Positions 7,091-56,910 of a stretch of 64,000 bases of DNA are shown in pieces (the first letter of the stretch is position 1; the number at the start of each line of letters is the position of its first letter). This DNA comes from Escherichia coli (GTDB lineage Bacteria > Pseudomonadota > Gammaproteobacteria > Enterobacterales > Enterobacteriaceae), in NCBI RefSeq assembly GCF_003334305.1, contig NZ_QOWS01000007.1. One strand, 5' to 3'. Position numbers and translations under genes: made by a program. The notes beneath the pieces are model-generated. The model did not search any database and was not told the DNA's origin. It saw nothing but the letters and a program-made list of their open reading frames with translations.

Positions 7091-8038
7091 ATGAGACAAA
7101 CTCTTTGCGACGGATATCTGGTTATTTTTGCGTTAGCACAGGCCGTGATTCTGCTGATGCTAACCCCACTTTTTACGGGTATTTCCCGGCAGATACGCGC
7201 GCGTATGCACTCCCGCCGCGGGCCGGGGATCTGGCAGGATTATCGCGATATCCACAAACTGTTTAAACGCCAGGAAGTTGCGCCGACATCTTCAGGTCTG
7301 ATGTTCCGCCTGATGCCGTGGGTATTAATCAGCAGCATGCTGGTGCTGGCGATGGCCTTACCACTGTTTATTACCGTTTCCCCTTTTGCGGGCGGCGGCG
7401 ATCTGATCACCCTTATCTATCTTCTTGCCCTGTTTCGTTTTTTCTTTGCTCTTTCCGGGCTGGATACCGGAAGTCCGTTTGCGGGAGTCGGTGCCAGTCG
7501 CGAGTTGACGCTCGGCATTCTGGTCGAACCAATGCTTATTCTCTCACTGCTGGTATTGGCGCTGATAGCAGGTTCCACGCATATCGAGATGATCAGCAAT
7601 ACGCTGGCGATGGGCTGGAACTCGCCGCTAACCACCGTACTGGCGTTACTGGCCTGTGGTTTTGCCTGCTTCATTGAGATGGGAAAAATTCCCTTTGATG
7701 TTGCTGAAGCAGAACAGGAATTACAGGAAGGCCCGCTGACCGAATATTCCGGTGCCGGGCTGGCGCTAGCGAAATGGGGGCTGGGGCTGAAACAGGTCGT
7801 GATGGCATCACTGTTTGTGGCCCTGTTTCTGTCCTTTGGGCGCGCGCAAGAACTTTCTCTCGCCTGCCTGCTGACTTCACTTGTCGTTACGCTGCTCAAG
7901 GTTTTGCTGATTTTTGTACTGGCCTCAATCGCGGAAAACACGCTGGCACGCGGGCGTTTTTTACTCATTCACCATGTGACCTGGCTTGGCTTCAGCCTTG
8001 CTGCGCTTGCATGGGTCTTCTGGTTAACCGGTCTGTAA
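7091..8038 (+). CDS. hyfC: hydrogenase-4 component C, NuoH-like membrane subunit
   Basis: ORF 7070..8038; start set at MRQTLCDGYLVIF after AAGGA (315 aa). Confidence 0.9.
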   Translation: MRQTLCDGYLVIFALAQAVILLMLTPLFTGISRQIRARMHSRRGPGIWQDYRDIHKLFKRQEVAPTSSGLMFRLMPWVLISSMLVLAMALPLFITVSPFAGGGDLITLIYLLALFRFFFALSGLDTGSPFAGVGASRELTLGILVEPMLILSLLVLALIAGSTHIEMISNTLAMGWNSPLTTVLALLACGFACFIEMGKIPFDVAEAEQELQEGPLTEYSGAGLALAKWGLGLKQVVMASLFVALFLSFGRAQELSLACLLTSLVVTLLKVLLIFVLASIAENTLARGRFLLIHHVTWLGFSLAALAWVFWLTGL

Positions 8039-8054
8039 GGAGCACTGACGGAAT

Positions 8055-9285
8055 ATGGAAAATCTTGCTCTGACGACGTTAATGCTGCCTTTTATCGGCG
8101 CACTGGTCGTTTCGTTTTCGCCACAACGTCGGGCCGCCGAATGGGGGTTTTGTTCGCCGCACTGACCACGCTGTGCATGTTGTCGCTGATCTCCGCGTTT
8201 TATCAGGCCGATAAAGTTGCCGTCACGTTGACGTTGGTCAACGTGGGGGATGTGGCATTGTTTGGCCTGGTCATTGATCGCGTGAGTACGCTGATTCTGT
8301 TTGTGGTGGTGTTTCTCGGTTTGCTGGTCACGATCTACTCCACGGGTTATCTGACGGATAAAAATCGCGAACACCCGCATAACGGCACGAATCGTTATTA
8401 CGCATTTTTGCTGGTGTTTATCGGCGCGATGGCGGGACTGGTACTCTCCTCGACGCTGCTCGGTCAGTTGTTGTTTTTTGAAATTACGGGCGGCTGCTCC
8501 TGGGCGTTGATCAGTTATTACCAGAGCGATAAAGCGCAGCGTTCAGCACTAAAAGCGTTGCTTATCACCCATATCGGTTCGTTGGGGTTGTATCTTGCCG
8601 CCGCCACGCTGTTTTTGCAGACCGGAACGTTTGTGCTTAGCGCGATGAGCGAGTTACATGGCGACGCACGTTATCTGGTTTATGGCGGCATCCTGTTTGC
8701 CGCGTGGGGGAAATCGGCCCAGCTACCGATGCAAGCGTGGCTACCGGACGCAATGGAAGCGCCAACACCGATCAGCGCCTATCTCCACGCCGCATCGATG
8801 GTGAAAGTGGGCGGCTGGCACTGGAGGGCAGCATCGCCTACATCGTCAACCACGCGTTCGCTAAAAGCCTGTTTTTCCTTGTAGCAGGTGCGCTGAGTTA
8901 CAGCTGCGGCACGCGCTTATTGCCGCGTCTGCGTGGCGTATTGCACACCCTGCCGTTGCCAGGCGTGGGTTTCTGCGTGGCAGCGCTGGCGATTACCGGT
9001 GTGCCGCCGTTCAACGGCTTCTTCAGTAAATTCCCGCTGTTTGCCGCCGGTTTTGCGTTGTCAGTGGAGTACTGGATCCTGCTGCCCGCCATGATTCTGC
9101 TGATGATTGAATCGGTCGCCAGTTTCGCCTGGTTTATTCGCTGGTTTGGTCGCGTTGTGCCTGGCAAACCGAGCGAGGCCGTCGCCGATGCCGCACCGCT
9201 GCCAGGGTCAATGCGCCTGGTGTTGATTGTACTGATTGTGATGTCGCTGATTTCCAGCGTAATCGCCGCGACCTGGTTGCAGTAA
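8055..9285 (+). pseudogene. hyfD: hydrogenase-4 component D (NuoM/N-like membrane subunit), disrupted by a frameshift and an internal deletion
   Basis: Coding signal is split over three frames: 8055..8165 (MENLALTTLMLPFIGALVVSF..., TGA after a G5 run), 8141..8884, and 8704..9285. The region holding the KRLLAxS(T/S)VEN(V/M)G motif present in HyfB and HyfF is missing. Confidence 0.75.
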
Positions 9286-9296
9286 GGAGATGATGA

Positions 9297-9947
9297 ATGA
9301 CCGGTTCTATGATCGTAAATAATCTGGCGGGACTGATGATGCTGACATCGCTGTTTGTGATTAGCGTCAAAAGCTATCGCCTGTCATGCGGATTTTACGC
9401 CTGCCAGTCGCTGGTGCTGGTGTCTATTTTCGCCACTCTCTCGTGCCTGTTCGCCGCAGAGCAACTGCTGATCTGGTCCGCCAGCGCCTTTATCACCAAA
9501 GTGCTGCTGGTACCGTTAATCATGACTTACGCTGCACGAAATATTCCCCAGAACATCCCGGAAAAAGCGTTATTCGGTCCGGCAATGATGGCACTGCTCG
9601 CGGCGTTAATTGTCCTGCTTTGCGCATTTGTCGTTCAGCCCGTGAAGCTACCGATGGCTACCGGGCTGAAACCGGCGCTGGCGGTAGCGTTAGGTCATTT
9701 TCTGCTTGGCCTGCTGTGCATTGTCAGCCAGCGCAATATCCTGCGGCAAATTTTTGGTTACTGCCTGATGGAAAACGGCTCCCATCTGGTGCTGGCGCTT
9801 CTTGCCTGGCGAGCACCGGAACTGGTGGAAATAGGTATCGCTACCGACGCCATCTTCGCCGTCATTGTGATGGTGTTACTGGCAAGAAAAATATGGCGTA
9901 CCCACGGCACGCTGGACGTGAACAACTTGACCGCGCTGAAGGGATAA
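9297..9947 (+). CDS. hyfE: hydrogenase-4 component E, small membrane subunit
   Basis: 216-aa hydrophobic ORF at the expected position and length. Confidence 0.9.
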
Positions 9948-9951
9948 TGAG

Positions 9952-11532
9952 ATGAGTTATTCTGTGATGTTCGCTTTACTCCTGCTCACGCCGCTGCTTT
10001 TTTCGCTGCTCTGTTTTGCCTGCCGGAAACGGGGGCTCTCTGCGACTTGTACGGTGACTGTATTACATAGCTTAGGGATCACACTGCTGCTGATTCTGGC
10101 ACTCTGGGTGGTCCAAACTGCCGCTGATGCAGGAGAAATATTCGCTGCGGGACTGTGGCTTCATATTGATGGTCTGGGCGGTTTGTTCCTCGCCATTCTT
10201 GGTGTGATTGGCTTTCTCACCGGTGTTTACTCGATTGGCTACATGCGTCATGAAGTGGCACACGGCGAGCTTTCACCCGTTACACTGTGCGATTACTACG
10301 GTTTCTTCCATCTGTTTTTGTTCACCATGCTGCTGGTTGTTACCAGCAATAACCTGATTGTGATGTGGGCGGCGATCGAAGCCACCACCTTAAGCTCGGC
10401 GTTTCTGGTAGGCATTTACGGTCAGCGTTCATCGCTGGAATCAGCATGGAAGTACATCATTATTTGTACTGTTGGTGTCGCTTTTGGTCTGTTCGGTACC
10501 GTGCTGGTATACGCCAACGCCGCCAGCGTTATGCCGCAGGCAGAAATGGCGATATTCTGGAGCGAGGTTCTTAAGCAATCGTCCTTGCTTGACCCAACAT
10601 TAATGCTGTTGGCCTTTGTGTTTGTGCTAATTGGCTTTGGTACCAAAACCGGGCTATTTCCCATGCACGCCTGGCTGCCGGATGCTCACAGTGAAGCGCC
10701 GAGTCCGGTCAGCGCCCTGCTCTCCGCCGTATTGCTGAACTGCGCGCTGTTGGTGCTGATTCGCTATTACATCATTATTTGCCAAGCCATCGGCAGCGAT
10801 TTCCCCAACCGGTTGTTGCTCATCTTCGGCATGTTGTCGGTTGCCGTGGCGGCATTTTTCATTCTGGTACAGCGGGACATTAAGCGTCTGCTGGCGTACT
10901 CCAGCGTGGAGAACATGGGGCTGGTCGCGGTGGCGCTAGGCATTGGCGGGCCGCTGGGAATTTTTGCCGCGCTGCTGCACATCTTAAACCACAGTCTGGC
11001 AAAAACGCTGCTGTTCTGCGGTTCCGGCAATGTACTGCTCAAGTACGGCACGCGCGATCTCAACGTCGTCTGTGGGATGCTCAAAATCATGCCATTTACC
11101 GCCGTGCTGTTTGGCGGCGGTGCGCTGGCGCTGGCAGGGATGCCGCCCTACAACATTTTTCTTAGCGAATTTATGACCATTACCGCCGGACTGGCACGTA
11201 ATCACCTGCTGATTATCGTCCTGCTGTTATTGCTGTTAACGCTGGTGCTGGCGGGCCTGGTACGGATGGCAGCGCGGGTGTTAATGGCGAAACCGCCGCA
11301 GGCCGTTAACCGGGGTGATCTCGGCTGGTTGACCACCTCGCCAATGGTGATTCTGCTGGTCATGATGCTGGCGATGGGAACGCATATTCCACAACCTGTC
11401 ATCAGGATCCTGGCGGGCGCTTCCACTATAGTCCTCTCAGGGACGCACGACCTGCCTGCACAACGTAGCACCTGGCATGATTTTTTGCCTTCAGGCACCG
11501 CATCTGTTTCGGAGAAACACAGTGAACGTTAA
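9952..11532 (+). CDS. hyfF: hydrogenase-4 component F, NuoN/M-like membrane subunit
   Basis: 526-aa polytopic ORF with motif [13 protein letters not shown]. Confidence 0.9.
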
Positions 11533-13237
11533 TTCATCGTCAAATCGTGGCGAAGCGATTCTCGCCGCCCTGAAAACGCAGTTCCCCGGCGCGGTGCTGG
11601 ATGAAGAGCGACAAACGCCTGAACAGGTCACCATTACGGTGAAAATCAATCTGCTGCCTGACGTTGTACATTATCTTTATTATCAACATGATGGCTGGCT
11701 TCCAGTCCTGTTTGGCAACGACGAGCGGACACTTAACGGTCATTACGCGGTTTATTATGCCCTTTCAATGGAAGGGGCCGAAAAATGCTGGATCGTGGTG
11801 AAGGCACTGGTCGATGCCGACAGTCGGGAGTTTCCGTCAGTCACACCGCGCGTCCCTGCCGCGGTCTGGGGCGAGCGAGAAATTCGCGATATGTACGGGC
11901 TGATTCCGGTTGGCCTGCCGGATCAGCGTCGCCTGGTGTTGCCCGATGACTGGCCGGAAGATATGCATCCGCTGCGCAAAGATGCGATGGATTATCGACT
12001 GCGCCCTGAACCGACGACAGATTCCGAAACGTATGCGTTTATCAATGAGGGCAACAGCGATGCGCGGGAGATCCCTGTCGGCCCGCTGCATATCACCTCC
12101 GATGAACCGGGTCACTTCCGCTTGTTTGTGGATGGCGAGCAAATTGTCGATGCTGATTACCGCCTGTTTTATGTCCATCGCGGCATGGAGAAACTGGCAG
12201 AAACGCGGATGGGCTACAACGAAGTGACCTTCTTATCGGACCGCGTGTGTGGGATTTGCGGTTTTGCCCACAGTGTGGCCTATACCAATTCGGTTGAAAA
12301 TGCACTGGGGATTGAGGTGCCGCAACGAGCACATACTATTCGCTCGATTCTGCTGGAAGTCGAACGGCTACACAGTCATTTGCTTAACCTTGGCCTCTCC
12401 TGCCATTTCGTTGGTTTTGATACCGGCTTTATGCAATTTTTCCGCGTGCGGGAAAAGTCGATGACGATGGCGGAATTGCTGATCGGGTCGCGTAAAACCT
12501 ACGGTCTGAATCTGATTGGTGGTGTTCGCCGCGATATTCTCAAAGAGCAACGTCTGCAAACGCTGAAACTGGTGCGCGAGATGCGCGCCGACGTGTCGGA
12601 GCTGGTAGAGATGCTGCTTGCCACGCCGAATATGGAACAACGCACTCAGGGCATTGGCATTCTCGACCGACAAATCGCCCGTGATTATAGCCCTGTAGGG
12701 CCGCTGATCCGCGGCAGTGGTTTTGCCCGTGATTTGCGCTTTGATCACCCCTACGCCGACTACGGCAATATTCCAAAAACACTGTTTACCTTTACCGGCG
12801 GCGATGTTTTCTCCCGCGTGATGGTCCGTGTCAAAGAGACGTTTGATTCGCTGGCAATGCTGGAATTTGCCCTCGACAACATGCCGGATACCCCACTGCT
12901 GACCGAAGGCTTTAGCTATAAACCTCACGCATTCGCGCTGGGCTTTGTTGAAGCGCCACGCGGTGAAGACGTGCACTGGAGCATGCTCGGTGATAACCAA
13001 AAATTGTTCCGCTGGCGCTGCCGTGCCGCCACCTACGCCAACTGGCCGGTGTTGCGTTACATGCTGCGCGGCAATACCGTTTCTGACGCACCGCTGATTA
13101 TCGGTAGCCTTGATCCCTGCTACTCCTGTACCGACCGTGTGACGCTGGTAGATGTGCGCAAGCGCCAGTCAAAAACCGTGCCGTATAAAGAGATCGAACG
13201 CTACGGCATTGATCGTAACCGTTCGCCGCTGAAGTAA
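11522..13237 (+). CDS. hyfG: hydrogenase-4 large (NiFe catalytic) subunit
   Basis: ORF 11477..13237; NiFe large-subunit N-terminal CGIC motif; precise start uncertain (GTG at 11522 or a downstream codon). Confidence 0.85.
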
Positions 13238-13246
13238 GGACAGAAG

Positions 13247-13786
13247 ATGCTGAAGTTACTGAAAACTATTATGCGCGCCGGAACCGCGACGGTGAAATAT
13301 CCCTTCGCGCCACTGGAGGTCAGCCCAGGCTTTCGCGGGAAACCGGACCTGATGCCCAGCCAATGTATTGCCTGCGGCGCCTGTGCTTGTCCGGCAAATG
13401 CGCTGACTATCCAGACCGACGACCAGCAAAATTCGCGCACCTGGCAGCTCTATCTGAGGCGTTGTATTTACTGCGGACGTTGTGAAGAAGTGTGCCCGAC
13501 CAGAGCCATCCAGCTTACCAATAACTTTGAACTGACCGTCACCAATAAAGCCGATCTCTATACCCGCGCGACGTTCCATCTACAACGTTGCAGCCGTTGC
13601 GAACGCCCGTTTGCCCCGCAAAAAACCGTCGCACTGGCTGCTGAATTGTTGGCACAGCAACAAAATGCGCCACAAAACCGCGAAATGTTGCGGGCGCAAG
13701 CGAGCGTCTGCCCGGAGTGCAAACAACGCGCGACGCTGATCAACGACGATACAGATGTACCGCTGGTGGCTAAGGAGCAGCTATGA
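13247..13786 (+). CDS. hyfH: hydrogenase-4 component H, 4Fe-4S ferredoxin-type subunit
   Basis: 179-aa ORF with CxxCxxCxxxCP motifs, preceded by an AAGGA RBS. Confidence 0.9.
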
Positions 13787-14541
13787 GTCCAGTGCTTACA
13801 CAACATGTCAGCCAGCCCATCACGCTGAACGAGCAAACGCAAAAGATGAAGCGGCATTTGCTACAGGATATCCGTCGCTCGGCTTACGTTTATCGCGTCG
13901 ATTGCGGCGGCTGCAACGCCTGTGAAATCGAAATTTTTGCTGCCATCACACCCGTATTCGACGCAGAACGTTTTGGCATTAAGGTTGTTTCATCACCGCG
14001 TCACGCCGATATTTTGTTATTTACTGGCGCAGTCACCCGGGCGATGCGTATGCCTGCACTTCGGGCGTATGAGTCTGCCCCCGATCATAAAATCTGTGTT
14101 TCCTACGGCGCGTGCGGTGTCGGCGGCGGTATTTTCCACGATCTCTACAGCGTCTGGGGCGGCAGCGACACCATTGTCCCCATTGATGTTTGGATCCCCG
14201 GCTGCCCGCCAACACCGGCCGCCACCATTCACGGTTTCGCCGTGGCGCTCGGTTTGCTGCAACAGAAGATTCACGCTGTGGATTATCGCGATCCCACCGG
14301 GGTGACTATGCAACCGCTGTGGCCGCAAATCCCGCCATCACAACGTATCGCCATTGAGCGAGAAGCGCGGCGGCTGGCGGGCTATCGTCAGGGGCGAGAA
14401 ATTTGCGATCGGCTCCTGCGCCATTTAAGCGACGATCCTACAGGAAATCGGGTTAACACCTGGTTGCGCGATGCCGACGATCCACGTCTCAATAGTATCG
14501 TTCAGCAACTCTTTCGCGTACTCCGGGGGTTACATGACTGA
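13783..14541 (+). CDS. hyfI: hydrogenase-4 small subunit (NuoB-like)
   Basis: 252-aa ORF overlapping the hyfH stop; NuoB-like cysteine motifs (CGGCNAC, GCPP). Confidence 0.9.
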
Positions 14542-14947
14542 AGAGTGCGGGGAAATTGTTTTCTGGACGCTGCGAAAAAAGTTTGTCGCCAGTAGCGACG
14601 AGATGCCGGAACACAGCTCTCAGGTAATGTATTACTCGCTGGCTATCGGTCATCACGTTGGCGTGATTGATTGTCTGAATGTCGCCTTCCGCTGCCCACT
14701 GACGGAATACGAAGATTGGCTTGCACTGGTCGAAGAGGAACAAGCCCGACGTAAGATGCTGGGGGTGATGACTTTTGGTGAGATTGTTATTGACGCCAGC
14801 CACACCGCCCTGTTGACCCGGGCATTCGCGCCACTGGCAGATGACGCGACGTCTGTGTGGCAGGCGCGTAGCATTCAATTCATTCATCTGTTGGATGAAA
14901 TTGTGCAGGAACCGGCCATCTATCTGATGGCCAGAAAAATTGCGTGA
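14534..14947 (+). CDS. hyfJ: hydrogenase-4 component J (HycH-like maturation factor)
   Basis: ORF 14471..14947; start set at [11 protein letters not shown] (137 aa), overlapping the hyfI end. Confidence 0.85.
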
Positions 14948-43659: not shown

Positions 43660-43755
43660 CTCTTTCTGAATATAAAAATGAACCCTCAACGCTTCCCTCA
43701 ATGTTTCGGGAGCTATGCGGGTTCAATCATACACGGGAAGCGAGGCGCTTCCCAT
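43660..43755 (-). ncRNA. sroE: probable SroE small RNA region (ispG 3' UTR / hisS leader)
   Basis: 110-nt structured spacer between ispG and hisS. From memory, SroE maps to the gcpE-hisS spacer in E. coli; boundaries are approximate and unverified. Confidence 0.35.
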
Positions 43756-43762
43756 CACGTTA

Positions 43763-44881
43763 TTATTTTTCAACCTGCTGAACGTCAATTCGACGCGCTT
43801 CGTCCAGCTGACTGGCTTTCGCACGAATGCGTGCTTCCAGCTGGTCGATCATATCGTTGTTGTCCAGACGGTCTTTGCGCACGCCATCTTCATAGAGGCC
43901 GCTTTTCTTGTTGCCGCCGGTGACGCCGAGTGTAGAAACCAGCGCCTCACCTGGGCCATTCACCACGCAGCCGATAATCGAAACGTCCATCGGAGTGATG
44001 ATATCTTCCAGGCGTTGCTCCAGCGCGTTAACCGTACCGATAACATCAAATTCCTGACGCGAACAGGTCGGGCAGGCGATGAAGTTGATCCCGCGCGAAC
44101 GGATACGCAGCGATTTCAAAATATCGAAACCGACTTTGATCTCTTCGACCGGATCGGCCGCCAGTGATACGCGCAGCGTGTCGCCGATGCCTTCAGACAG
44201 CAGCAGACCTAAACCAATGGCGGATTTTACTGCCCCGCTGCGTGCACCACCGGCTTCGGTGATCCCCAGATGCAGCGGCTGATCGATCTGTTTTGCCAGC
44301 AAACGATAAGACTCAACAGCGAGGAAGACGTCAGACGCTTTCACGCTGACTTTGAACTGATCGAAGTTCAGGCGATCGAGATGATCAACATGGCGCATGG
44401 CGGATTCCAGCAACGCCTGCGGCGTCGGTTCGCCATACTTTTCTTGCAGATCTTTTTCCAGCGATCCGGCGTTAACGCCAATACGGATCGGAATGTTTTT
44501 ATCGCGCGCACAGTCAACCACCATGCGAATACGCTCTTCATTACCGATATTGCCAGGGTTAATACGCAGACAATCGACGCCGTATTCCGCTACTTTCAGT
44601 GCAATGCGATAGTCGAAGTGGATGTCAGCCACCAGCGGCACGTTAACCTGCTGTTTGATGAGTTTGAACGCTTCTGCCGCGTCCATCGTCGGTACGGAGA
44701 CACGGACGATATCAGCGCCAACGCGTTCCAGCGCCTTGATTTGATTGACCGTTGCTTCGACGTCTGTCGTACGCGTATTGGTCATGGACTGTACGGCGAT
44801 GGGAGCACCATCGCCAATCGGCACATTCCCAACGTAAATACGTGTTGATTTTCTACGTTGAATTGGAGCCTGGTTATGCAT
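43763..44881 (-). CDS. ispG: 4-hydroxy-3-methylbut-2-enyl diphosphate synthase (flavodoxin)
   Basis: 372-aa ORF recognised as IspG/GcpE. Confidence 0.95.
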
Positions 44882-56462: not shown

Positions 56463-56606
56463 TGCTGGTCTGGTTCGCGGCCTTTCCAGCAGGTTGTATT
56501 ACCGTAGTAATGCAAGCGCGTCTCAGCGGAGACAATACTCGCCAGTAACTCTCTTTTTGTCAAGCAAAAGAGAGTTATTATTGTTCTGTTAGTGTATTAT
56601 CCACTG

Positions 56607-56910
56607 CGGCCCTTTCCGCCGTCTCGCAAGCGGGCGCTGGCTTAAGGAAAGGATGTTCCGCGACCGTTAGAGCAAGCGCGTCTCAGCGCTTGCTATCGCG
56701 GCAATATCGCCAGTGGTGCTGTCGTGATGCGGTCTTCGCATGGACCGCACAATGAAGATACGGTGCTTCTGTATCGTACTTATTGTTTCTGGTGCGCTGT
56801 TTTCCCAAGTAAATAATAACCGGAGTCTCTCCGGCGACAATTTACTGGTGGTTAACAACCTTCAGAGCAGCAAGTAAGCCCGAATGCCGCCCTTTGGGGC
56901 GGCATATTTT
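56607..56910 (+). ncRNA. ryfA: probable RyfA small RNA locus
   Basis: Structured 490-nt sseA-sseB spacer ending in a plus-strand intrinsic terminator (gccgccc-tttg-gggcggc + atatttt) at 56886..56910. From memory, ryfA lies between sseA and sseB; 5' end and strand are inferred. Confidence 0.3.

Follow-up and report, generated by a model that had tools for sequence, protein, structure and literature searches.

Organization of the hyfF–hyfG junction

The 64,000-nt stretch of Escherichia coli DNA analysed here (the window; contig NZ_QOWS01000007.1 of assembly GCF_003334305.1) carries a hyf operon in which hyfG is preceded by hyfE and hyfF and followed by hyfH, hyfI and hyfJ. The features at the junction between hyfF and hyfG are the following:

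hyfF, 9952–11532, plus strand: encodes the 526-aa antiporter-like membrane subunit of hydrogenase 4 and ends in TAA at 11530–11532
hyfG, 11522–13237, plus strand: 571 aa, hydrogenase 4 catalytic large subunit, with GTG 11522 as the proposed start
Shine-Dalgarno (SD) sequence GGAG of hyfG, 11511–11514, plus strand: within the hyfF coding sequence, 7-nt spacer to the GTG
hyfF/hyfG overlap, 11522–11532, plus strand: 11 nt, GTGAACGTTAA, read directly from the sequence
In-frame ATG upstream of hyfG, 11477–11479, plus strand: probable non-start, hyfF coding sequence in another frame
In-frame GTG, 11594–11596, plus strand: internal valine codon, Val25 of an FPGAVLD motif, probable non-start

The hyfF gene agrees with the RefSeq hyfF annotations of strains E2865, K-12 and A7, and shares 99.05% identity with K-12 hyfF along its entire length.

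HyfG has the expected architecture of a NuoC-like N-terminal domain fused to NiFe large-subunit/49-kDa domains, and cluster representatives 99% identical to it carry PF00329, PF00374 and PF00346. An NCBIfam search for a HyfG-specific profile matched NuoD/NuoCD-type models alone, all under their cutoffs. The protein aligns over its full length to the E. coli paralogue HycE, the large subunit of hydrogenase 3 in FHL-1 (7z0s chain E; E = 6.7e-291 over residues 22–586 of the longest hyfG ORF), and over residues 90–475 to NuoCD. Both NiFe-binding cysteine pairs, in RVCGICG and DPCYSC, are present and, in the alignment, match those of HycE and MbhL. C-terminal processing sites distinguish hyf-type (R/VTLV) from hyc-type (R/MTVV) proteins (PMC7384014), and the window protein has the hyf-type site. 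HyfE, encoded upstream, is a marker specific to FHL-2 (10.1101/563510). Judged by these sequence features, the window HyfG is the group 4a [NiFe]-hydrogenase large subunit of FHL-2.

A GUG start codon for hyfG

The hyfG frame opens at 11432, immediately after an in-frame stop ending at 11431, and offers start codons at ATG 11477, GTG 11522, GTG 11594 and GTG 11639. A first-pass annotation of this DNA had given hyfG a 56-nt overlap with hyfF if read from ATG 11477 and an 11-nt overlap from GTG 11522, and our re-reading of the coordinates reproduces both values. Its statement that no ATG start lies directly after the hyfF stop is also correct, because the next in-frame ATG past that stop comes only at 11768, which is codon 98 in the 586-aa ORF. 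Its proposal of a non-ATG start is borne out by the strength of the RBS, the orthologous loci, the N-terminus of HycE, curated annotation and the literature, all of which favour GTG 11522.

The predicted duplex with the anti-SD sequence is −6.6 kcal/mol for GTG 11522, with a spacer of 6–7 nt, and a duplex of −6 kcal/mol or stronger occurs in just 6.6% of 22-mers in the window. The GGAG with its 7-nt spacer falls within the 5–9 nt expected upstream of an SD-dependent GUG. The E. coli SD (cGGAGa) has one base less than the AGGAGA of most orthologues, and reads CGAG, a natural ETEC variant, in 15 of 4295 genomes.

Comparison with HycE places the N-terminus at the same point. In the alignment, residue 4 of HycE (cryo-EM structure 7z0s_E) falls opposite residue 22 of the 586-aa ORF, and HycE Met1 therefore corresponds to residue 19. 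GTG 11522 encodes residue 16, so that the two N-termini match to within 3 residues. The K-12 hycE gene itself differs in its start region: it begins with ATG, 17 nt past the hycD stop and without overlap, behind a weak AAGAGAG SD.

Existing annotation agrees with this start. PGAP places the hyfG start 11 nt inside hyfF in eight E. coli genomes, one of them identical to the window, as does the curated MG1655 entry b2487 (NP_416982.1, protein version.1). The K-12 gene thus has the same GTG, SD and 11-nt overlap, and its junction is identical to that of the window over the 91 nt from 11470 to 11560. In both dominant HyfG protein clusters (8611 and 1499 members) the protein has 571 aa, and the start codon of E. 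coli hyfG has been given as GUG (Finney et al. 2019). The GTG start is therefore already annotated and published, and as such is an ordinary finding; it confirms the existing annotation and has little significance beyond that.

Taken together, the sequence evidence makes it almost certain that hyfG is translated from GUG 11522 behind the GGAG, with ATG 11477 and GTG 11594 unused. A 30S subunit would bind GGAG 11511–11514 in the last hyfF codons and initiate 7 nt downstream, and initiation at this GUG would give a 571-aa HyfG with its N-terminus in register with that of HycE. In vivo initiation at GUG 11522 is the probable consequence of this arrangement.

Conservation of the start module in the hyf clade

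We compared the junction among 19 hyf loci from three bacterial orders (Enterobacterales, Orbales and Alteromonadales). A HyfF scan of one genome per species yielded eight loci, and the sample was widened by protein search and exact-sequence contig look-ups. The 18 loci from outside E. coli comprise Klebsiella indica, four Citrobacter, Phytobacter, Brenneria, Pectobacterium, Proteus, Dickeya, Gilliamella, Atlantibacter, Shimwellia, Serratia, Morganella, Celerinatantimonas, Shewanella and a Budviciaceae genome. A module of AGGAGA, 4–7 nt and GTG is found in all 19 loci; the 18 non-E. coli loci each have (A)GGAGA, 4–7 nt and GTG at the homologous position. In P. betavasculorum, for example, AGGAGA is followed after 5 nt by GTG, and the overlap with the upstream gene is 14 nt. 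The hyfG gene of Pectobacterium atrosepticum, which has a functional FHL-2, also starts with GUG (Finney et al. 2019). In Brenneria and Celerinatantimonas an ATG lies right behind the GTG, which is there a candidate initiator. The comparison thus demonstrates the position of the hyfG start, its SD and the conservation of both.

Shared ancestry by itself does not account for the invariant G of the start codon: synonymous sites are saturated, and of the 127 four-fold degenerate sites examined in columns with an invariant residue, not one has the same base in all 19 sequences. In the 11 loci with called genes, all 44 starts of the neighbouring genes hyfF, hyfH, hyfI and hyfJ are ATG, and every hyf gene in the window other than hyfG has an ATG start. 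The idea that a GUG moderates HyfG synthesis has been raised for two species (Finney et al. 2019). Tentatively, and at somewhat less than even likelihood, the GUG and its strong AGGAGA SD could have been selectively kept across the FHL-2 (hyf) clade, the GUG acting as a throttle or as a reinitiation-friendly start that sets the amounts of catalytic relative to membrane subunits. The clade-wide pattern extends the published idea at the level of conservation, not of function, and is a small addition to what is known.

Overlap and possible translational coupling of hyfF and hyfG

The hyfG GTG lies upstream of the hyfF stop on the same strand, the geometry of an overlapping gene pair. As in known coupled pairs (for example ATGA or GTGA overlaps of 4 nt), the start precedes the stop and the SD is embedded upstream. 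However, the 11 nt of the hyfF/hyfG overlap exceed the common 1- and 4-nt classes of such pairs, which leaves this pair a candidate for coupling. Within the same operon, hyfH and hyfI overlap by 4 nt (ATGA) and hyfI and hyfJ by 8 nt. The overlap would put the hyfG start within reach of a ribosome terminating on hyfF, allowing reinitiation, and coupling is compatible with the anatomy of the junction because the SD and the start sit in the last 22 nt of hyfF. Some translational coupling of hyfF and hyfG is thus likely on sequence grounds, although the SD permits independent initiation.

A stricter version of this idea holds that GTG 11522 can be used only when hyfF is translated, through termination–reinitiation or unfolding of the site by the upstream ribosome, and that the overlap is the functional feature. 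Besides the placement of SD and start within hyfF, this is suggested by the predicted local fold of the free mRNA, in which the GTG is mostly paired (probability of being unpaired 0.18), such that initiation could need unfolding by a ribosome translating hyfF. The sequence TGTTTC-GGA-GAAACA (11505–11519) folds into a small hairpin that encloses the SD, and in 18 of 19 loci the distance between the hyfF stop and the GTG is no more than 23 nt. However, the length of the overlap varies, with extremes of 23 nt shared and 23 nt of separation; the hairpin occurs in E. coli only, and the accessibility of the SD follows no pattern among the orthologues. The SD is also strong, at −6.6 to −7.8 kcal/mol, as expected of independent initiation. 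Furthermore, deletion of hyfDEF in P. atrosepticum raised HyfG levels (PMC7384014), a comparison that hinges on the junction left by that deletion. We therefore consider strict dependence rather unlikely.

The spacing between the two genes among the 19 loci takes the form of overlaps of 23, 14, 11, 8 or 4 nt or gaps of 1, 2, 10 or 23 nt. Five loci have no overlap, and what is kept is the close juxtaposition and not the overlap. The 11-nt overlap would then be a by-product of where the variable tail of hyfF ends.

We rejected the 11505–11519 hairpin as a coupling device: it is confined to E. coli, leaves the SD mostly in the loop (probability of being unpaired 0.73), and the orthologues have no common structure. 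A terminator scan of 11000–12000 found none, and a promoter scan of the same interval returned one promoter-like site on the minus strand, at chance level; nothing in these scans points to an internal transcription unit at the junction.

Other in-frame start codons at the junction

The first-pass annotation had called the hyfG start ambiguous, a description that does not survive the orthologue alignment. This singles out GTG 11522, the only one of the three candidates with an SD. The alignment of orthologues and HycE, named beforehand as the refuting test of the ambiguity, favours one start with a canonical RBS. Neither the upstream ATG nor the downstream GTG is conserved across the loci.

Initiation at ATG 11477 would extend HyfG by 15 residues, to 586 aa. 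This codon begins the longest ORF and is the sole ATG near the junction, and an analogous upstream ATG was picked by the gene caller in Serratia (596 aa). However, it has no SD (−1.5 kcal/mol), and the extension lacks conservation: in-frame stops 21–45 nt ahead of the GTG close the frame in 9 of the 18 loci from outside E. coli (Klebsiella indica, Citrobacter NCU1, Phytobacter, Brenneria, Proteus, Dickeya, Shimwellia, Morganella and Celerinatantimonas). The residues of the extension have no equivalent in HycE, and the ATG is used by no annotation checked. The N-terminal extension of the 586-aa form is absent from all of the 120 best cluster representatives listed. A start at ATG 11477 is thus highly improbable. 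Production of two HyfG isoforms, from ATG 11477 and GTG 11522 both, is very unlikely as well. Both codons are in frame, with nothing further in its favour, whereas the absence of an SD, of conservation and of any counterpart in HycE or in annotations counts against the ATG here too, and the extension would sit on a NuoC-like N-terminal domain whose start position is conserved across the 19 loci.

A start at GTG 11594, the first in-frame start codon clear of hyfF, would give a 547-aa HyfG but has a negligible likelihood, as it lacks an SD (−1.7 kcal/mol), is an internal Val/Ile codon of the conserved FP(G/A)A(V/I)L motif that reads ATA or ATT in several genera (among them Klebsiella indica and Phytobacter), and would cost 24 residues, among them a block also conserved in HycE.

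GUG 11522 accordingly stands as the preferred start, and ATG 11477 and GTG 11594 would be in-frame triplets that arose by chance. The chance of at least one ATG, GTG or TTG in 30 open codons upstream of a true start is 0.78, and that of at least one ATG is 0.39; the apparent ambiguity is what chance leads one to expect. Taking the longest ORF gives the wrong answer at this junction: 586 aa here and 596 aa in the Serratia database entry.

The same longest-ORF trap is seen at the Serratia hyfG orthologue, and also at hyfJ in the window, where the longest ORF runs from 14471 and the annotated start is 14534.

Lesions in the hyf operon

Side observations on hyfG, hyfH and hyfD are more interesting, and have more practical value, than the start-codon result. 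They concern the following features:

hyfG 48-nt segment, 12686–12733, plus strand: 16 residues, flanked by the direct repeat GCCCGTGAT, present in the window
hyfH, 13247–13786, plus strand: 179 aa; 6 nt are deleted within the GCCTGY repeat at 13379–13384
hyfD pseudogene, 8055–9285, plus strand: G6 to G5 frameshift at about 8142 and a 208-nt internal deletion at about 8810

K-12 HyfG has 555 aa, compared with 571 aa in the window, because of a 48-nt in-frame deletion. The missing segment encodes the universally conserved motif GPxxRGSG and is deleted in K-12 and in about 49% of hyf+ E. coli genomes. We found no published description of the 16-residue gap in K-12 HyfG in the freely accessible literature searched.

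The K-12 allele of the catalytic subunit thus lacks a conserved 16-residue segment, which matters to work on E. coli hydrogenase 4, and many lineages, that of the window included, bear other lesions in the hyf operon. The genes hyfD to hyfJ carry intact annotations in O157:H7 Z887 and in strain H8. The operon is weakly expressed under laboratory conditions (PMC7384014), and no activity of K-12 Hyd-4 was obtained from 15 engineered strains (PMC7654741). [quoted passage not shown] On the sequence evidence, the missing HyfG segment and the operon lesions offer a concrete and testable explanation of why Hyd-4 activity has for so long gone undetected in K-12.

In HyfH, the 6-nt deletion falls in an iron–sulfur cysteine motif, which it shortens from 12 residues to 10. 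The hyfD gene is labelled 'frameshifted' by PGAP in the identical sequence of strain A7, and the hyfD deletion allele was present in 2 of 12 sampled cases, a rough estimate of its frequency.

The hyfG start codon

The E. coli hyf operon, which encodes hydrogenase 4 (formate hydrogenlyase-2), lies in the window, whose positions 8000-14000 match commensal strains including A7 and H15 at 100% identity. At the hyfF-hyfG junction, the first-pass annotation had listed several candidate starts for the large subunit HyfG, and its description of these starts and their overlaps is correct throughout when read from the sequence. The features concerned are:

9952-11532, hyfF, with its TAA stop at 11530-11532
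11432, opening of the hyfG frame, immediately after an in-frame stop ending at 11431
11477, ATG in the hyfG frame, overlapping hyfF by 56 nt
11522, GTG in the hyfG frame, overlapping hyfF by 11 nt
11594, GTG in the hyfG frame, a candidate start
11639, a further GTG in the hyfG frame
11768, next in-frame ATG, at codon 98

Five independent lines of evidence, namely the ribosome-binding site (RBS), orthologues, the HycE paralogue, annotation and literature, point to GTG 11522. A Shine-Dalgarno (SD) sequence, GGAG (11511-11514), lies 7 nt before this codon with an anti-SD duplex energy of -6.6 kcal/mol, a range (-6 or lower) reached by only 6.6% of window 22-mers; the values at ATG 11477 and GTG 11594 are -1.5 and -1.7 kcal/mol. 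We also gathered the junction from 18 non-E. coli genomes (Klebsiella indica, four Citrobacter, Phytobacter and Brenneria; Pectobacterium, Proteus, Dickeya, Gilliamella, Atlantibacter, Shimwellia, Serratia and Morganella; Celerinatantimonas, Shewanella and one Budviciaceae genome). All 18 have (A)GGAGA and then, 4-7 nt later, a GTG homologous in position to 11522; those duplex energies that were computed lie between -7.3 and -7.8 kcal/mol. In HycE, the large subunit of hydrogenase 3, residue 4 of the solved chain 7z0s_E aligns with residue 22 of the 586-aa ORF that begins at ATG 11477, so HycE Met1 corresponds to ORF residue 19, three residues after GTG 11522 (residue 16). In 8/8 E. coli genomes inspected, among them A7 with a sequence identical to that of the window, the RefSeq pipeline PGAP places the start 11 nt inside hyfF, as does the curated and never revised MG1655 entry b2487 (NP_416982.1). 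The two dominant HyfG protein clusters (8,611 and 1,499 members) are both 571 aa long, and the N-terminal extension of the 586-aa ORF occurs in none of the best 120 cluster representatives listed. Finally, E. coli hyfG has been reported to begin with GUG (Finney et al. 2019).

The rival starts fare poorly. At GTG 11594 the orthologues have an internal Val/Ile codon of a conserved FP(G/A)A(V/I)L motif. ATG 11477 has no counterpart among the 18 junctions, nine of which carry an in-frame stop 21-45 nt 5' of the GTG. Spare in-frame starts upstream of the true one are expected by chance: given 30 open codons, at least one alternative start codon arises with probability 0.78, and an ATG with probability 0.39. 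The supposed ambiguity is therefore resolved, because the orthologue alignment clearly favours one start with a canonical RBS, the result that the first-pass annotation had named as refuting it, and the proposed non-ATG start is upheld at GTG 11522. The answer was already present in annotation and literature, and the start is an ordinary feature.

Conservation of GUG

All 19 hyfG sequences (E. coli included), which share 72-100% pairwise protein identity (median 78%), have G as the opening base of the start codon. By comparison, not one of 127 four-fold degenerate sites in columns of invariant residues has a single base throughout, the commonest base there occurring in a mean of 10.3 of the 19 sequences. 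ATG starts hyfF, hyfH, hyfI and hyfJ in 44/44 cases (11 loci with called genes), as it does every remaining hyf gene of the window, and the start of K-12 hycE, 17 nt beyond the hycD stop, is an ATG too. Because the SD-GTG element falls in hyfF reading frames that differ between genera, and past the hyfF stop in five, hyfF coding constraint does not explain its conservation. Together, these patterns suggest that the GUG has been kept by selection. This extends a published two-species remark, and does not indicate what purpose the GUG serves.

Overlap and possible translational coupling

The hyfG SD and start fall within the final 22 nt of hyfF, which leaves a terminating ribosome well positioned for reinitiation. 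The hyfF stop nevertheless varies widely relative to the GTG.

Where the hyfF stop lies with respect to the hyfG GTG
23-nt overlap: three Citrobacter (Awk 4, C. amalonaticus, R56), K. indica
14-nt overlap: Pectobacterium, Shimwellia
11-nt overlap: E. coli, Brenneria
8-nt overlap: Dickeya, Shewanella
4-nt overlap (GTGA): Citrobacter NCU1, Phytobacter, Gilliamella, Serratia
1-2 nt gap: Proteus, Atlantibacter, Morganella
10-nt gap: Celerinatantimonas
23-nt gap: Budviciaceae

As the hyfF C-terminal tail is poorly conserved, the overlap seems to be a by-product of the point at which the tail stops. The coupling suggested by the first-pass annotation is possible, but is not required by this anatomy. 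A perfect inverted repeat at 11505-11519 (TGTTTC-GGA-GAAACA) places the E. coli SD in a small triloop hairpin, which is not conserved in other genera. In Pectobacterium betavasculorum, a 154-aa ORF without a Pfam match (1550-2014 of that locus) adjoins hyfG on its 5' side in place of full-length hyfF (~525 aa), and the membrane-arm gene content of this operon is unlike that of the other loci.

Among complete E. coli genomes, 1,131/5,426 have no match to the junction, so roughly one in five members of the species lacks the operon. The 91 nt at 11470-11560 are identical in 4,190 of the 4,295 hyf-carrying genomes. In 15/4,295, the SD GGAG is changed to CGAG at 11511 (for example position 1812 of the ETEC6333 locus), which is synonymous in hyfF (TCG to TCC); the five carriers listed of the 15 are all porcine isolates (swine, wild boar, porcine ETEC). 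CGAG is a natural weakened-RBS variant of hyfG.

Lesions in the hyf operon

More interesting than the start itself are the lesions of the operon. HyfG has 571 aa in the window and 555 aa in K-12 and strain E2865, because the latter lack 48 nt:

12686-12733, 48-nt hyfG segment, flanked by the direct repeat GCCCGTGAT (compared with 10488-12155 of the MG1655 locus)

The 16 residues lost include a GPxxRGSG...D(L/I)R motif that is kept in HycE, P. furiosus MbhL, bacterial NuoD/NuoCD and the mitochondrial 49-kDa/ND7 subunits, and in 18/18 non-E. coli hyf orthologues. The segment is present in 2,180/4,295 hyf-carrying complete genomes, so that ~49% (roughly 2,115) carry the deletion. Fifteen engineered strains yielded no K-12 hydrogenase 4 activity, attributed to 'unknown biosynthetic problems' (Finney et al. 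2020, PMC7654741), and Lindenstrauss and Pinske call E. coli formate hydrogenlyase-2 a 'long-standing mystery'. The 48-nt deletion, of which we found no published mention in the openly searchable literature, may account for the lack of any hydrogenase 4 activity seen in K-12.

The window has lesions of its own:

13247-13786, hyfH, with a 6-nt deletion (one GCCTGY repeat unit fewer, 13364-13411)
8055-9285, hyfD pseudogene, with a G6 to G5 frameshift at ~8142 and a 208-nt internal deletion at ~8810

The hyfH deletion shortens a 12-residue ferredoxin [4Fe-4S] motif to 10 residues, with loss of the CxxCxxCxxxCP spacing. This exact allele occurs in 762/4,292 E. coli genomes (~18%); the full motif is kept in K-12, E2865 and the orthologues checked (Pectobacterium, Proteus, Dickeya, Atlantibacter). 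The hyfD frameshift leads to a stop after 36 codons, PGAP labels the gene 'frameshifted' in the identical strain A7, and the deletion junction is common to about 2/12 sampled genomes. Lesions differ between E. coli lineages (E2865, 2014C-3061, PCP06173), the sets being a hyfI frameshift with the hyfG 48-nt deletion, hyfD and hyfI frameshifts, and a hyfD frameshift with an internal hyfF stop, although assembly errors may underlie some annotated frameshifts. The operon thus appears to be decaying independently in many lineages, with a catalytic-subunit lesion in the laboratory strain. In O157:H7 Z887 and in strain H8, hyfD-hyfJ are all annotated as intact (HyfG 571 aa, HyfH 181 aa), so these would be natural strains in which to look for native hydrogenase 4 activity.

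Other start calls and features

At hyfJ, the ORF from ATG 14471 (14471-14947, 158 aa) is longer than that from the annotated, K-12-homologous ATG 14534 (137 aa), which overlaps hyfI by 8 nt; as at hyfG, the longest ORF is misleading here. In Serratia, the start of HyfG cluster representative P0024 (596 aa; 108 members) has been placed at an upstream ATG, giving a 58-nt overlap (locus positions 2001-2058), although the conserved AGGAGA-GTG of this locus is at 2055; the start is probably mis-called. Two 740-aa entries with Fer4 domains, P0004 and P0005, resemble read-through fusions of HyfG with HyfH. The 64-kb window has no tRNA genes and two RNA matches at Rfam gathering thresholds, as expected for this E. 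coli chromosomal region:

56606-56910, plus strand, ryfA (317.9 bits)
43672-43763, minus strand, sroE (114.6 bits)
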